This document shows positions 1 through 13,264 of a stretch of DNA of 64,000 bases, piece after piece (position 1 is the first letter of the stretch; every line of letters begins with the position of its first letter). Made by a program: the position numbers and the translations under genes. The notes under the pieces are model-generated. The model ran no database searches. It was not told the DNA's origin and saw only the letters and a program-made list of their open reading frames with translations. Origin of the DNA: Deltaproteobacteria bacterium (GTDB taxonomy: Bacteria; Desulfobacterota; Binatia; JACPRU01); assembly GCA_016189835.1 (NCBI GenBank), contig JACPRU010000065.1, forward strand, positions 260-64,259, read 5' to 3'.

Positions 1-300
1 GCGCCGTGATCTCGGCTTCTCGCTGACCACGATCTCAACGTCGCGATTGAGCGCGTTCAGAAACCGAATCAGCCGCTCGACCGAGAAGCCGCTGAGCCGC
101 CCATTCCGAAGCGCCGACACCTTCGGCTGATCTATGCCCAGGATTTTCGCCGCTTCAGCCTGGGTCAAGCCTCGCTTCCGAATGCTTTGCTCGATCTCGT
201 AAGCCAAGCGGGCCTTCGCAAGAGCCTCTTCAGGCTGGGGTCGCCCCAAGTCAGCAAATACGTTGCCGCTGCTCCGCGTGACCTTGATGCGCGCGCTCAT
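1..300 (-). CDS. HigA-like XRE/HTH antitoxin, runs off the left edge
   Basis: Hand translation from ATG at 300: MSARIKVTRSSGNVFADLG...RGLTQAEAAKILGIDQPKVSALRNGRLSGFSVERL. Its ATG overlaps the toxin stop (ATGA). Confidence 0.9.
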   Translation of the reverse strand, partial: MSARIKVTRSSGNVFADLGRPQPEEALAKARLAYEIEQSIRKRGLTQAEAAKILGIDQPKVSALRNGRLSGFSVERLIRFLNALNRDVEIVVSEKPRSRR

Positions 301-680
301 TGCCTGCCTCCCGAAGTCGCCTCGGTATCCATCTCCGCTGCCCGCGTCAGTCTCTGCTCGATCAACTCGACGTCCCTCCTCGGCGTCTCGACTCCCTTCT
401 TCGACTTTTTCTGAAACGCATGCAGTACGTATACCGCGTGAACCAAACGCACCGTATACACCGCTCGGTACGTATCTCCTTGGTGATCCGAGATCATCTC
501 GAGAACCCGGCCTCCCTTGAACCCCTTGAGCGGCTTGGTCTTGCGGTGCTTATCGCCCATCTGCGCGAGGTAGATTCCATAACCCATCTCATCCTGAACC
601 TCGTCCGGGAACCTCTTCAGGTCCTCAAGGCTCGTGCCCACCCACACTGCCGGTCTCGGCTTACGCCCTTCCTCCCCCAC
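297..680 (-). CDS. RelE/HigB-family (phage Gp49-like) type II toxin
   Basis: WVGTSLEDLKRFP...YRAVYTVRLVHAVYVLHAFQKKSKKG motif; toxin-first order. Start placed at GTG 680, downstream of the putative promoter/operator (ORF track uses 698). Confidence 0.88.
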   Translation of the reverse strand: MGEEGRKPRPAVWVGTSLEDLKRFPDEVQDEMGYGIYLAQMGDKHRKTKPLKGFKGGRVLEMISDHQGDTYRAVYTVRLVHAVYVLHAFQKKSKKGVETPRRDVELIEQRLTRAAEMDTEATSGGRQ

Positions 681-687
681 GACCGTA

Positions 688-707
688 CCATGCCACATCT
701 AGCATGG
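688..707. promoter_or_regulatory. Inverted repeat CCATGC-N8-GCATGG, likely antitoxin operator of TA module 1
   Basis: Palindrome immediately upstream of the toxin start; type II TA autoregulation is the established model. Confidence 0.5.
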
Positions 708-730
708 GTGCGCAAGGCGGCCTAACCAAG

Positions 731-868
731 GCCTAACCAGGCGCTGCAGCTGACGCCGAGCAGCTGTCCTGACTCACCGCCGGTGGTTCGCGCCTCTCGC
801 TTTTTCGGTCGGGTCGTCTCGTGGTATGCATCGACTGCTCGGCGCAGCTGAGCGCCAAAGCGTTAGGC
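731..868 (+). mobile_element. attC: Integron attC recombination site
   Basis: R'' GCCTAAC (731-737), 5-nt spacer, L'' GCTGCAGC. Arm TGACGCCGAGCAG pairs with CTGCTCGGCGCA with one extra base. L' GCTGAGC, R' GTTAGGC (862-868). Preceded by a short tandem duplication of GGCCTAACCA (719-739). Confidence 0.88.
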
Positions 869-1174
869 TGCTTCGGGATGTTTGCGACGACGTTGAGCCA
901 CGTGGAGCCGCACGCGCATTCCCGCGCGCGAGAGCATCTCCACGAGTCCATCGATACTGAACAGATCGATTCGGCCGCGGACGAGATCACTGATCCGCGG
1001 CTGTGTGGCACCCAACAGCCTGGCAGCCTCAGCTTGCGTGACCTTTCGTCGCTTGATGAGCCGGGTGATCTGCAACATGAGCTCCGCTCGAAGCTTGAGG
1101 CTTTCCGCCTCCTGCCTGCTGAAACCGAGATCACGGAACACATTCCCCCTCGATCGCTCAATCTTCATTGCCAT
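863..1174 (-). CDS. HigA-like XRE/HTH antitoxin
   Basis: SRGNVFRDLGF...VTQAEAARLLGATQPRISDLVRGRIDLFSIDGL; its TAA stop lies inside the attC R' box. Confidence 0.9.
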   Translation of the reverse strand: MAMKIERSRGNVFRDLGFSRQEAESLKLRAELMLQITRLIKRRKVTQAEAARLLGATQPRISDLVRGRIDLFSIDGLVEMLSRAGMRVRLHVAQRRRKHPEAA

Positions 1175-1179
1175 CGTCT

Positions 1180-1530
1180 CTATTCCCAGTTCCGGCTCTT
1201 CCGAGCGGTCCGTCGCGCGTTGAGAAGGGCCTTCAGCCTCGTTCGCGCGAGCTCGATGTCCTCTCTCGCCGTCTTCCTTGCCTTTTTCTCGAAGGCATGG
1301 AGCACGTAGATCGATTCCTCAAGGCGCGTCACGTACAAGACGCGATGTTCGAGCTTGGTATGAATTCGAATCTCCTGAACCCCCAGGCCAACGCTTGGCA
1401 TCGCCTTCCAATCCGTCGGTTCGGTCCCGCTCTGCACGAGGTAAAGTTCATAGCCTGTCCGTTTCCGCGCATCGTCCGGAAACCCGCGCACGTCTCTTCG
1501 CGAGGAGCCCAACCACGTCAGCTGCCGCAT
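1180..1530 (-). CDS. RelE/HigB-family (Gp49-like) type II toxin
   Basis: MRQLTWLGSSRRDVRGFP...DWKAMPSVGLGVQEIRI...YVLHAFEKKARKT; start moved to ATG 1530, downstream of the promoter. Confidence 0.9.
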   Translation of the reverse strand: MRQLTWLGSSRRDVRGFPDDARKRTGYELYLVQSGTEPTDWKAMPSVGLGVQEIRIHTKLEHRVLYVTRLEESIYVLHAFEKKARKTAREDIELARTRLKALLNARRTARKSRNWE

Positions 1531-1540
1531 CCCATCACGC

Positions 1541-1568
1541 AGTATACAAGATTCTGTATGCGTGGCAA
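1541..1568 (-). promoter_or_regulatory. Sigma-70 promoter of TA module 2 with overlapping operator
   Basis: Minus strand TTGCCA-N16-TATACT; inverted repeat ATACA-N6-TGTAT (1544-1559). Confidence 0.65.
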
Positions 1569-1571
1569 GCA

Positions 1572-1589
1572 GCCTAACGGTCGTTGGGC
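1572..1589 (+). mobile_element. Collapsed attC site (R'' and R' boxes only)
   Basis: GCCTAAC-GGTC-GTTGGGC exactly at the boundary between two TA modules. Confidence 0.6.
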
Positions 1590-1628
1590 GGCTGAGAGTT
1601 GGGCACGCGAGCATCGCCAGCGACGCTC

Positions 1629-1657
1629 TTGAAGAGCCTACATGATGTAGCTACACT
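1629..1657 (+). promoter_or_regulatory. Sigma-70 promoter of the BrnT/BrnA module, probably leaderless, with palindromic operator
   Basis: TTGAAG-N17-TACACT, 6 nt before GTG 1664; CTACA-TGA-TGTAG inverted repeat in the spacer. Confidence 0.65.
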
Positions 1658-1663
1658 CCGGCG

Positions 1664-1824
1664 GTGCGGTTTGAGTGGGATGAGGCGAAGCGGAAGGCAT
1701 TCTGGGCGGTCGCGTCGTAGCCATCGCCCACACAGAGCGTGAGGATGCCATCCGGTTCATCTCCATCAGGCGGGCAACCAAGAATGAGGAAAAGAAGTAC
1801 TTCGCGAAGATCCCCGAGGCGTAA
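1664..1824 (+). pseudogene. brnT: BrnT-family toxin with internal deletion and frameshift
   Basis: N-terminus (M)RFEWDEAKRKA is joined out of frame to the C-terminus LGGRVVAIAHTEREDAIRFISIRRATKNEEKKY; the central part of the family is missing. Confidence 0.8.
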
Positions 1825-2038
1825 GGGCATCAATCTCTCGGATATCCCCGAGGTGTCTCCCGAGGCGTTCGCTAGAGGGTTGGTTCGCAAGGGGCTAGAG
1901 CCGGTGGCTCGCAAAGCGCAGGTCACCCTGCGGATCGACGCCGACGTCATCGAGTGGTTCCGGGACCGAGGTCGGGGCTACCAGACTCGGATCAACGCGG
2001 TTCTCAAGGCGTTCAAAGACGCCCACGGTCGTGCCTAG
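1784..2038 (+). CDS. brnA: BrnA-family antitoxin (RHH)
   Basis: INLSDIPE...KAQVTLRIDADVIEWFRDRGRGYQTRINAVLKAF. Confidence 0.9.
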   Translation: MRKRSTSRRSPRRKGINLSDIPEVSPEAFARGLVRKGLEPVARKAQVTLRIDADVIEWFRDRGRGYQTRINAVLKAFKDAHGRA

Positions 2039-2896
2039 TAGGCGGGGAAACGCTCGACGTGCAGGCGAGGATGGCGGGCAAGGAGTTGGCGGACGGCGGG
2101 ACCGCGATGAATGGAGCCTCCGTCCCAGAGCAGGATGATGTGCCCGCTCAGGTGCCGCAGCAGCAGGCGCAATAAGCAGCGACCTCGAGGTGGGTACTGT
2201 TGTCGAAGTGGAAGTGGAGGCCCAGGCGACGACGCCGGGGACTCACGGTCACTGCGGAGATCGCCGAGATCTTGTCGCGCTCGTAGCGGTGGAAGACCAG
2301 CGGCGTCTTGCCGCAGGGAGCCCAGGTGCGGCGCACGGTCGGGATGAGAAGGAAGCCGCTCTCGTCCAGGAAAACGACATACGCCATCAGTCGTCGGGCT
2401 TTTTTTTAATCTCGACCCAACGGTAGCGCTTCCAATGAGCGATCGCCGCTTCGTTCCGCTCCACTGCCCGTCGTTCGGGCTTCTGATAACTCCACCCGAG
2501 TTCCGCCAGGATGCGGCTCACGTGCGCTGGATGGTAGTCGATCCTCAACTCCTGCTTGATCACGGCGGCGATCCGCCGGGTGGTCCACAGATCGTTCGGG
2601 TAGCCGTAGCGCCGAGCCCCCACGGCAAGGATCTTCGGCAGGCGCTGCCGCTGCCGGGGCGTCAGCTTCGGCGGCCGCCCCGCAGCAGGTCTTGCCGCCA
2701 GACCCTGCTCTCCCTTCCGGCGCCACGTCTCACGCCACTGCCACACGGCGCTCACTGCTGCGCCGATCATCCGCGCCACCGCCGACAGCGAGTTCCCGGC
2801 TTCCAACAGCCGCACTGCCCGCCGCCGACGCCTCTCCAGCTCCGCCGGGCTTCCACGCGCTTCCGGGTCACGATGGGCAGCGCGCGCCTGGGTCAT
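2039..2896 (-). mobile_element. IS630-family transposase remnant (orfA, -1 frameshift, frameshifted and truncated orfB)
   Basis: orfA HTH (WTTRRIAAVI...LGWSYQKPERRAVERNE); A8G slippery site at 2399-2407. orfB VFLDESGF...TWAPCGKTP has a further frameshift, then IILLWDGGSIH...VERFPAY, cut off before the usual PELNPxE. Confidence 0.88.
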
Positions 2897-3112
2897 CCCG
2901 TGCTCGACGACACCGACCAGGCCATCCTCGCCAGCCTCGCCGGCGGCAAGGGGCGCCCGACGAGCGAGATCGCCGAGGCGATCGCACTCACCCCGCGCGC
3001 CACGCGCACCCGTCTGGCCCGGCTCGTCGGCCGCGGGCTGGTGCGCGAGATCGGCACGGGGCCGCAGGACCCGCAGCGGCGCTACTACCTGGCCGATCGA
3101 GGCCCGGCATGA
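2897..3112 (+). pseudogene. C-terminal winged-HTH fragment of a larger protein (type often found next to R-M loci)
   Basis: LDDTDQAILASL...TSEIAEAIALTPRATRTRLARLVGRGLVREIGTGPQDPQRRYYL; no N-terminus; stop overlaps the hsdM start. Confidence 0.6.
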
Positions 3113-3255
3113 AGCTCACCCTCCACAGCAGCTCGAAGCCCACCTCTGGGGCGCGGCGAACATCCTGCGCGGCAAGACCGCGGGGCAGGACTACAAGAAC
3201 TACATCCCGTCGCTGATGTTCTACAAGCGCCTCTGCGACCGGTGGGAGTGCGAGG
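3109..3255 (+). pseudogene. hsdM: Type I R-M methyltransferase HsdM N-terminal fragment, frameshifted
   Basis: MKLTL / QLEAHLWGAANILRGKTAGQDYKNYIPSLMFYKRLCDRWE after a frameshift near 3125. Confidence 0.8.
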
Positions 3256-3492
3256 CTCAAGGACGGCGTACAGGAGCGCTATCTCAGCTACTACGGCATC
3301 CGGCGCGTGATCCAGGACGGGGCCACGCCGGAGGTGCACTACATACGGGACAAGGTGCCGTTCAAGGTGGACGAGGAGCCGCTGAGCGTCGGGTTCGAGC
3401 AGATGTGCGCGGAGATGGAGCTGGGGGACGAGGAGGCGAAGGACTCCATCCAGCGCCAGCGCGCGCAGTGGAAAGAGCTGGCCCGCCATCAC
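3256..3492 (+). pseudogene. hsdR: Internal fragment of type I restriction subunit HsdR
   Basis: YLSYYGIRRVIQDGATPEVHY resembles the HsdR YxIxxAIxDGATxxxxY segment; fused directly to the hsdM fragment. Confidence 0.6.
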
Positions 3493-3493
3493 A

Positions 3494-3520
3494 GCGCAGC
3501 TGAGAGCCGGATCGTGTGGC
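3494..3520 (+). mobile_element. Right-arm remnant of an attC site
   Basis: GCGCAGCTGAGAGCCGGATCGTGTGGC versus the intact attC end GCGCAGCTGAGCGCCAAAGCGTTAGGC; R' box degenerate. Confidence 0.45.
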
Positions 3521-3593
3521 CGCTTGAATCAGTAGTGGTACCGGGCCTGAAGGAAGTCGACGCGATCGGCGCGGGTGAGTGCCAAGTCGTCGA

Positions 3594-12233: not shown

Positions 12234-13132
12234 ACCTTCTCCTCGAGCGAGGTGCCGAACAGCCCCGAGGGCCGCACCAACAGGACGACGATCAGGATCA
12301 CGAACGCGATCGCGTCGCGGTAGGTCGACGAGACGTAGCCGACCACCAGCACCTCGGAGAGCCCCATGAGGAGGCCGCCGGCCATCGCGCCCGGGATGTT
12401 GCCGATGCCGCCGACGACCGCCGCCACGAACGCCTTGAGGCCCGGCATGATGCCCATCAGCGGCTCGATCTTCGGGTTCGACAGGCCGACCAGCACGCCG
12501 GCCGCGCCGGCCAGCATCGAGCCGAGCACGAACGTGAGCGAGATCATGCGGTCGACGTCGATGCCCATCAGGCTGGCCGTCTCGGCGCTGTAGGACACGG
12601 CGCGCAACGCGGTTCCGACGCGCGTGCGGAAGACCAGGAACTGCAGCCCGAGCATCAACGTGAGGGAGACGCCGAGGATCAGCAGCTGCACGTTGGTGAT
12701 GACGATGCCGCTGCCCGGGGAGATCTCGCGGCTCTCGATCAGCTGCGGAAAGAACTTGGGATCGGGACCGAAGAAGAGCTGCCCGCCGTTCTCGAGCAGC
12801 AGCGAGACGCCGATCGCGGTGATGAGCGCCGTGAACTTCGGCGAGCGGCGCAGCGGCCGGTACGCCAGGCGCTCGATCAGGAAGCCGAGCAGGCCGCAGG
12901 CGGCCATCGACAGCGCGAGCAGCGCGAAGAACGCCGGCGCGGACGCCGTGCCGGGGGCGAGCAGCGCGCGGGCCGCGTAGTACGCCACCATCGCGCCGAT
13001 CATGTAGACGTCGCCGTGCGCGAAATTGATGAGGCGGAGCACCCCGTAGACCATCGTGTAGCCGAGCGCGATCAGCGCGTAGAGGCTGCCCCAGGCGATG
13101 CCGTTGACGACCTGCTGGAGAAACTCGTTCAT
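12230..13132 (-). CDS. livH: Branched-chain amino acid ABC transporter permease
   Basis: YALIALGYTMVYGVLRLINFAHGD, KAFVAAVVGGIG. Confidence 0.94.
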   Translation of the reverse strand: MNEFLQQVVNGIAWGSLYALIALGYTMVYGVLRLINFAHGDVYMIGAMVAYYAARALLAPGTASAPAFFALLALSMAACGLLGFLIERLAYRPLRRSPKFTALITAIGVSLLLENGGQLFFGPDPKFFPQLIESREISPGSGIVITNVQLLILGVSLTLMLGLQFLVFRTRVGTALRAVSYSAETASLMGIDVDRMISLTFVLGSMLAGAAGVLVGLSNPKIEPLMGIMPGLKAFVAAVVGGIGNIPGAMAGGLLMGLSEVLVVGYVSSTYRDAIAFVILIVVLLVRPSGLFGTSLEEKV

Positions 13133-13264
13133 GCCCGTTCCGCCCCGCGCGATCGCACGGCCGGCGCGGTGACCCGCGAGCGAGCCGATGAAGATCGGCT
13201 TGGTCCGGACTCGTCGCCGTCCACGGCGCCGACCTTCATCGGCTCGCTCGCGGACGCCATCCGC

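Follow-up and report, generated by a model that had tools for sequence, protein, structure and literature searches.

Toxin-antitoxin modules in the first positions of a probable Treponema-type integron in an uncultured groundwater bacterium

The beginning of a 64-kb stretch of DNA from a groundwater bacterium carries small gene pairs separated by palindromic sites. This raises the question of whether the pairs are toxin-antitoxin (TA) cassettes of an integron and, if so, at which end of the integron they lie. The stretch (the window) is C44:260-64259, i.e., positions 260 to 64259 of contig C44 of genome G000, so that window position x is C44 position x+259; the 259 bases of the contig to the left of window base 1 were also analysed. 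The genome, a metagenome-assembled genome (MAG), totals 2.61 Mb in 87 contigs and is 74.8% complete and 1.6% contaminated, with ~70% G+C. The original prediction described an array of TA cassettes at the distal end of a sedentary integron, or in a cluster of attC sites without an integron integrase (CALIN). We find that the feature is real and an ordinary example of a known arrangement, and that its placement has to be corrected from distal to proximal. The stretch is probably the attI-proximal start of an integron of the Treponema type, in which the integrase is transcribed towards attI, with TA modules in the first slots.

The palindromic site at 731-868 is a genuine integron attC. It reads GCCTAAC...GTTAGGC over 138 nt, with complementary R'' (RYYYAAC) and R' (GTTRRRY) cores spaced within the required 50-150 nt. 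On either strand it forms a long imperfect hairpin with a 7-bp R box, L boxes and an asymmetric unpaired spacer. The minus strand folds at -40.8 kcal/mol (z -4.30, matched or bettered by 0 of 200 shuffles) and the plus strand at -40.0 kcal/mol (z -3.43, by 1 of 200). Rfam at gathering thresholds gave no match over the whole window. We therefore used a covariance model, R1, built from attC sites of other genomes. Comparison loci (n=80) were fetched via the integron integrase of this genome, which lies on contig C79; they encode related integrases (53-72% identical) and belong for the most part to MAGs from soil and fresh water that represent many phyla. A rule combining R cores and stem picked 22 sites in 12 of these loci, all from genomes other than G000. 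Two exact duplicates in L065 were left out, and the remaining 20 were aligned to train R1. The shared structure comprises 22 pairs, in which 93.5% of cells are paired (vs 74.8% in shuffles), and two-sided changes were seen in 14 of the 22.

Searched with R1 at E<=10, the window yielded a single match, which is 731-868 on the plus strand at full length (74.5 bits, E 4.7e-16). The reverse strand of the same site scored only 10.7 bits, and recognition is thus strand-specific. The site was also the sole match in the 2.6-Mb assembly (150 of 2946 first-look candidates scored), and no other site in the 2.6 Mb passed the heuristic of R cores plus stem. The original prediction had called 731-868 a full attC and had proposed a covariance-model search as the check; with R1 run on window and assembly, the site was recovered as described. 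The window has 5 copies of GCCTAAC itself, where 2.03 would be expected (5 is reached in 3 of 100 shuffles), and 4 of the 5 copies fall within 720-1578. Genome-wide, the motif occurs 14 times in both orientations, with 7 of these in C44:84-1837 or at C79:280. An extra GCCTAAC at 720-726, just before the attC, belongs to an 11-nt tandem duplication; among four public sequencing runs, two (X1 and X3) have contigs that lack these 11 nt at C44:978.

The polarity of the attC determines where attI should be sought. On the 5' arm of the plus strand, two bases, G746 and A753, are unpaired, with a spacing of 6 bp. Nivina et al. (2016) describe extrahelical bases near L'', on the arm that lies opposite AAC in the bottom strand, the strand that is recombined. 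The behaviour of R1 on the 80 loci gives a second line of evidence. At E<=0.01 it made 185 matches in 45 loci, including the 20 training sites. Most (139, in 39 loci) are on the integrase strand and downstream of the integrase, and 39 (in 6 loci) are on the opposite strand and upstream of it, which is the classical divergent layout. The others are three same-strand upstream matches, all in L066, and four weak reverse-strand shadows in L065. In L070, which has the classical layout, the open frames between attC sites share the strand of R1, as do the forward cassettes of L082. The position of the unpaired bases opposite the AAC of the minus strand, together with the strand behaviour of R1, identifies plus as the top strand. 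Thus, attI is expected on the left, and both TA pairs that flank the site are inverted relative to it, as the original prediction had stated.

To the left, an attI region is present at C44:~48-235. It ends in GTTAGGC 24 nt before window base 1, on the side that the original prediction had deduced from attC polarity. The genome encodes one integron integrase, found when intI was looked for as that prediction had suggested, at C79:423-1355 (TIGR02249, 439 bits vs a cut-off of 265) and hence on a contig other than C44. Just downstream of the integrase gene, which stops at C79:414, lies C79:135-321; its reverse complement shares 76% identity with C44:48-235, and the alignment breaks off exactly at GTTAGGC/GTTGGGC. 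Further, C44:2-239 aligns to a metagenome contig, L093 (179 of 242 columns), starting ~18 nt past the stop of an integrase that is 94% identical to that of C79 over 310 aa. Judged by this alignment, the left end of contig C44 coincides with the expected end of an integrase gene.

A scan of metagenome contigs with the 20-nt attI core returned four matches (L092, L093, L094 and L095). Three of the four lie downstream of an integrase gene or in a homologous region, each followed by a different sequence: L093 has the integrase and then the homologous attI region, L095 has the same region, and L092 carries the final 56 codons of an integrase (77% identity), followed by the core and by three attC matches on the same strand. 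The match in L094, with neither integrase nor homologous region, was taken as chance. Relatives with the co-directional layout have a similar core 200-400 nt after the integrase stop, which by eye consists of a CTGTC(G/T)AAT-like box, 4 nt and GTTRGGC. The last 31 nt of the C44 attI copy have a 97% match in an Eisenbacteria MAG. The sequence that follows GTTRGGC is different in each of C44, C79, C68 (a further contig of this genome), L025, L092, L093 and L095. Among C44, C79, C68, L025, L093 and L095, homology runs up to GTTRGGC and no further. A conserved left side with a variable right side is the signature of the attI crossover point, which we place at GTTRGGC. The atypical layout, with the integrase transcribed towards attI, is known from Treponema (Wu et al. 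2013, PMC3607928).

Two other observations concern this region. An upstream box at C44:71-90 (CAGGTCTGCCTAAC) resembles the box before the crossover core at C44:210-222 (GGACCTGTCGAAT), and similar paired boxes are visible in L051 and L009; judging from their sequence, they may be accessory integrase-binding repeats. The 152-nt segment C44:84-235 (GCCTAAC...GTTAGGC) was considered as a fourth attC and rejected (fold z -0.15, R1 6.9 bits).

Logan contigs from four groundwater runs (X1-X4) provide a view of the population. Most agree with C44, and record 7 of X1 covers, without a gap, the site at the far end of the second module that is discussed below. Contigs of X1-X3 extend ~475 nt to the left of C44:1. 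One X3 contig matches C44:1-235 and diverges directly after GTTAGGC. Contigs of X4 and X2 carry cassette 1 from C44:229 on, preceded by other sequence, and in X4 that preceding sequence resembles, by eye, the 3' end of an attC. The variant junctions at C44:229-235 are what cassette insertion at attI in part of the population would give, and we take them as an indication of it. Contig joints whose shorter side has no more than 20-23 nt (391>813, 1592>2191 and others) were set aside as matches from TA genes of other organisms.

Cassette 1 spans C44:230 to window position 862, so the window opens 24 nt inside it. It carries an antitoxin gene and a toxin gene that overlap by 4 nt; the genes of the second pair are 5 nt apart. 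Small adjacent genes matching PF05973 and PF13744, the arrangement of a type II TA pair, are thus present twice. The stop codon TAA of antitoxin 1 (C44:230-232) lies inside the attI core GCCTAA (C44:230-235), and the translation of C44:230-301 ends in RAA and the stop. That of antitoxin 2 (863-865) is the TTA of the attC R' core, where the protein ends in EAA and the stop. Since both inverted antitoxin genes, and a homologue in L082 (stop at 12358-12360), end on the TAA of a recombination core, there is no spare sequence at that cassette edge. The toxins of the two pairs are 35-37% identical and the antitoxins 40%, and the pairs are old paralogues. Toxin 1 shares 54% aa identity with a third copy on contig C62. 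A PDB sequence search gave no match for toxin 1 and a weak match of toxin 2 to the HigB structure 6af3 (E 0.006). NCBIfam assigned no name above its cut-off to any of the five TA proteins.

The second module is flanked by GTTAGGC (862-868) and GCCTAAC (1572-1578), as the original prediction had noted. The likely start of toxin 2 is the ATG at 1530, and its open frame extends to 1614. The only promoter-like site in 1-2100 (TTGCCA-16-TATACT) is placed between the attC remnant at 1572-1589 and this start. The original prediction had given each pair its own promoter; such a site was found for pair 2 and for none of the others. It had also described 1572-1589 as a site with R'' and R' only. The sequence is as described, and R1 gave no convincing match there: the best overlapping stretches scored 14.8 and 12.1 bits, with many broken pairs, and used a GCCCAAC inside the toxin gene.

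Pair 2 has its closest homologue (aa identity of 52% for the toxin and 63% for the antitoxin) in L082, a Gemmatimonadales MAG. There, the homologous pair has the same inverted orientation and lies between full attC sites at 12236-12363 and 13040-13179. The promoter/operator region and GCCTAAC of the window align with L082 up to the R'' of the 140-nt attC at 13040-13179. Compared with that attC, the window is without L'', loop and L', and the alignment resumes 4 nt before R'. Thus, from the alignment, 1572-1589 is best read as an attC with a deleted interior. An attC without its interior gives no folded recombination substrate, and cassette 2 would therefore be fused to what follows and non-excisable. 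Fused cassettes of class 1 integrons are reported to arise by partial or total loss of attC (PMC4670013).

Table 1. Features at the left end of the window. Positions are those of the window except where C44 is given.
Feature	Position	Strand	Evidence or detail
Antitoxin 1, HTH_37/Xre type	1-300, extends 29 nt beyond window start	-	Pfam PF13744, E 2.2e-28
Toxin 1, Gp49/DUF891 (RelE/ParE-HigB-like), first gene of inverted pair	297-698	-	Pfam PF05973, E 3.6e-21
11-nt tandem duplicate of R'' start, GCCTAACCAAG	720-730	+	Sequence; polymorphic in population
attC of cassette 1	731-868 (C44:990-1127)	+ (top strand)	R'' 731-737, unpaired G746 and A753, R' 862-868
Antitoxin 2, HTH_37	863-1174	-	Pfam PF13744, E 5.4e-25
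Toxin 2, Gp49 family	1180-1530	-	Pfam PF05973, E 7.3e-19
Promoter-like site for pair 2, TTGCCA-16-TATACT	1568-1541	-	10/12 matches, consensus only
Probable collapsed attC of cassette 2	1572-1589	+	R'' GCCTAAC, GGTC (4 nt), R' GTTGGGC; L'', loop and L' gone
BrnT toxin pseudogene, internal deletion and frame change	1664-1824	+	BrnT_toxin profile
BrnA antitoxin, intact, direct orientation	1784-2038	+	Pfam PF14384, E 3e-18
IS630-family transposase gene remnant, frameshifted	~2035-2896	-	HTH_33 and related matches, DDE_3

The third module is a BrnT/BrnA pair in which BrnA is whole and BrnT is broken. The N-terminal frame of BrnT runs from 1664 to a stop at 1718-1720. The only part that survives in the other frame, at 1705-1821, matches positions 51-77 of the 77 in the BrnT_toxin profile (E 3e-7). 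The open frame of BrnA begins at 1739, with a first ATG at 1784, and homologues of BrnA were not found in the 80 related loci at E<=1e-4. One TA pair per interval, as originally described, thus holds for the first two intervals; in the third the toxin is a pseudogene. The integron cassettes are real, and the word array overstates what is present, which is one intact attC, one collapsed attC and one 5-mer.

The 5-mer is the GCCTA at 2033-2037, which the original prediction read as the start of a third R''. It is present, shares bases with the stop codon of BrnA and borders the truncated transposase gene. With 47 copies of GCCTA on both strands of the window, it is at most a candidate remnant of an R'', namely its first five bases. 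R1 found no attC after the third module in the 64-kb window. The transposase gene belongs to an insertion sequence (IS) of the IS630 family and is cut inside its DDE domain at ~2035-2040; 2035-2172 matches positions 74-115 of the 146 in the DDE_3 profile. As the gene is cut at position 115 of 146, its boundary marks a deletion junction rather than a native end of the IS. Further copies of the element were found neither in the assembly, where it is single, nor in the 80 loci. After the remnant, 2897-3112 encodes a 71-aa AsnC-type HTH frame (E 4.6e-7), and frames up to 3530 resemble restriction-modification fragments, with no Pfam match at E<=0.1. We regard 2897-3530 as gene debris between the cassettes and ordinary chromosomal genes.

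Related platforms and cassettes occur elsewhere in the genome. On contig C68 (13991-14463), a 250-nt integrase leader (87% identical to that of C79) is joined directly to an intact attI region (91%). This second platform is without 1008 nt that cover the whole integrase gene, has a different gene upstream, and reaches the contig end 3 nt after GTTGGGC. The first cassette on C79 (C79:1-134, minus strand, L001) opens with a GGAGG-type ribosome site and a forward frame. The 33 visible residues of the frame match GmrSD_N weakly (PF03235, E 5.7e-4), and this may be a defence gene in first position. On C62, 28373-28471 carries only the left arm of a site like 731-868 (75% identical over 99 nt, R1 6.7 bits). 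This half attC is located upstream of the third Gp49/HTH_37 pair (to 29414), in the same relative order and away from any attI; site and pair look like a decayed stray cassette.

We also screened 30 relative genomes for the integron integrase at the same cut-off. It was identified in five. One of these is the sole species of the same genus; its cassettes are forward and its layout is co-directional. Genome G007, from the same family (92% complete), has no integrase at E<=1e-40, three attC matches, and an attI-like stretch with a degenerate core. Its array lies at about 4100-9200 of L107 (G007:C2:170000-186000). One of its attC sites is 82% identical to 731-868 and stands beside an inverted pair read by eye as HigB/HigA. 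A pair read by eye as Phd/ParE is at the far end, and the array adjoins an apparent tRNA gene (also by eye). No integron was found at the corresponding tRNA site in G000 (contig C20). With that site empty, the position of the integron is not conserved across the family.

The following picture would account for these observations. The integrase IntI, by established integron biology, would recombine the folded bottom (minus) strand of attC with attI at the point between G and TT. The integrase gene itself presumably lies directly to the left of C44. Cassette 1 would be intact and still mobilisable, with a canonical attC behind an inverted operon of Gp49 toxin and HTH_37 antitoxin. Cassette 2, whose paralogous and divergent pair is likewise inverted and has a promoter-like site, would have been fused to what follows by the collapse of its attC. 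The third module would be a decayed BrnT/BrnA pair in direct orientation, cut off by the truncated transposase gene. Because the first two pairs face backwards, they must be transcribed from promoters of their own. If the modules are indeed toxic and addictive, losing the region would carry a penalty. In chromosomal integrons, TA cassettes that have promoters of their own are described as penalising cassette loss (Richard et al. 2024, PMC13108822; Ghaly et al. 2021).

Other explanations have to be weighed against this one. C44 could carry an attI platform without an adjacent integrase, like those of C68 and G007, and thus a fossil that is mobile only via the C79 integrase in trans, or never. 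We consider this unlikely. It is in keeping with a contig that ends before any integrase sequence, with C68:13991-14460, which keeps the leader and attI region after the loss of the whole gene, and with the G007 array and its degenerate core. However, the start of C44 so close to the integrase stop of L093 fits a break in a repeat shared with C79, contigs of three runs continue further to the left, and the core on C44 is intact, with variant junctions at that core in the population. It is very improbable that the stretch is a CALIN, or a long sedentary integron at its distal end, after the loss of ordinary cassettes. The cassettes are indeed all TA modules, and the truncated IS630 gene and fragments that follow them point to something lost on the right. 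Retention of addictive cassettes after ordinary ones had gone would be compatible with these remnants at 2035-3530. But it is the attI region, and no attC, that lies immediately to the left, which makes this the attI-proximal start. By definition (Cury et al. 2016, PMC4889954), a CALIN has two or more attC sites and no integrase close by; one site passes in the contig and in the assembly, and the second site, collapsed, reaches at most 14.8 bits.

A different kind of alternative concerns the 138-nt palindrome itself, which might be a dispersed repeat of the REP (repetitive extragenic palindromic) type, or a terminator or operator hairpin of a TA operon. The partial copy upstream of the third pair on C62 shows that it can travel with the gene pair. 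A REP repeat should be present in many copies, and there are one full and one half copy in 2.6 Mb of a 75%-complete assembly; with a single genome-wide match, the REP-like alternative fails. The original prediction had named genome-wide dispersal of the motif as part of what would overturn it, and such dispersal was not seen. Moreover, 731-868 matches attC sites from other phyla on one strand only and with both unpaired bases kept, the C62 copy retains the left arm alone, as a decayed cassette would, and the 82%-identical attC of G007 stands beside an unrelated HigBA pair. We give this alternative a negligible probability.

Several points weigh against the proximal placement in a functional integron, and we set them out together. 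There is no integrase gene on contig C44, whose start is ~18 nt past the expected integrase stop, and the same attI type occurs elsewhere without an integrase (with the 1008-nt deletion on C68 and with a degenerate core in G007), so the platform on C44 may likewise be without one. The window has one intact attC only. No promoter-like site was identified in the attI region or upstream of pair 1 (C44:1-1200), nor for BrnTA (window 1-2100). The reading of 1572-1589 as a collapsed attC depends on a single homologous cassette, that of L082. The training sites of R1 were chosen by our own rule, and the model is independent of G000 and not of that rule. The population data are contigs, not reads, from runs of one study; these runs may include the source sample, and they are therefore not independent support. 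Finally, the genome is a 75%-complete MAG in 87 contigs, in which C44, C68 and C79 could be from different strains in the bin.

The proximal start of a Treponema-type integron, as we read the stretch, adds an example of this layout from an uncultured groundwater bacterium, with attI defined by comparison. It is also a small example of array decay, with one live TA cassette, one that appears to have been welded by loss of its hairpin, and one that is broken. The attI core and R1 are reusable for mapping the integrons of this clade in soil and groundwater metagenomes. The locus fits the published idea that addictive cassettes stabilise integrons and is no test of it. A broader scheme can be proposed, in which arrays decay to addictive cassettes that are fixed by clean attC collapse, a TA guard beside attI protects the landing pad, and the pads of C44, C68 and C79 are served in trans by the single integrase; we regard it as doubtful. 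Knowledge of how integrons work is unchanged by the finding. Earlier work has described the co-directional layout and fused cassettes, as well as arrays disrupted by an IS and genomes that hold several integron elements (PMC3607928, PMC4889954, PMC4670013).

Comparison with these known systems places the locus more exactly. According to Cury et al. (2016, PMC4889954), the CALIN and In0 categories of IntegronFinder include cassettes without an integrase on the contig and with IS fragments alongside, as here; in contrast to those categories, the locus has one passing attC and an attI, and neither category fits cleanly. Cassette 2 resembles the fused cassettes described for class 1 integrons (PMC4670013), in that the interior of its attC appears lost and it is welded to the next module. 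Unlike those fusions, the loss is clean, with both 7-nt cores kept 4 nt apart, and affects a TA cassette of a chromosomal integron. The TA cassettes described for the sedentary chromosomal integron of Vibrio cholerae (PMC13108822) are two-gene modules of the same kind, which need their own promoter and are in part inverted. Unlike in V. cholerae, the TA modules here occupy the first positions next to attI with nothing else left, and their families are Gp49/HTH_37 and BrnTA. The closest likeness is to integrons of the Treponema denticola type, as described in PMC3607928, with the same order of integrase, attI and cassettes in one direction; this order is shared by 39 of the 45 related loci in which R1 found attC sites, and by L092 and L093. 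The locus differs from that type in that the C44 contig is known without its integrase side, and in its host, a groundwater MAG of 70% G+C with its own conserved attI core and upstream repeat-like box.

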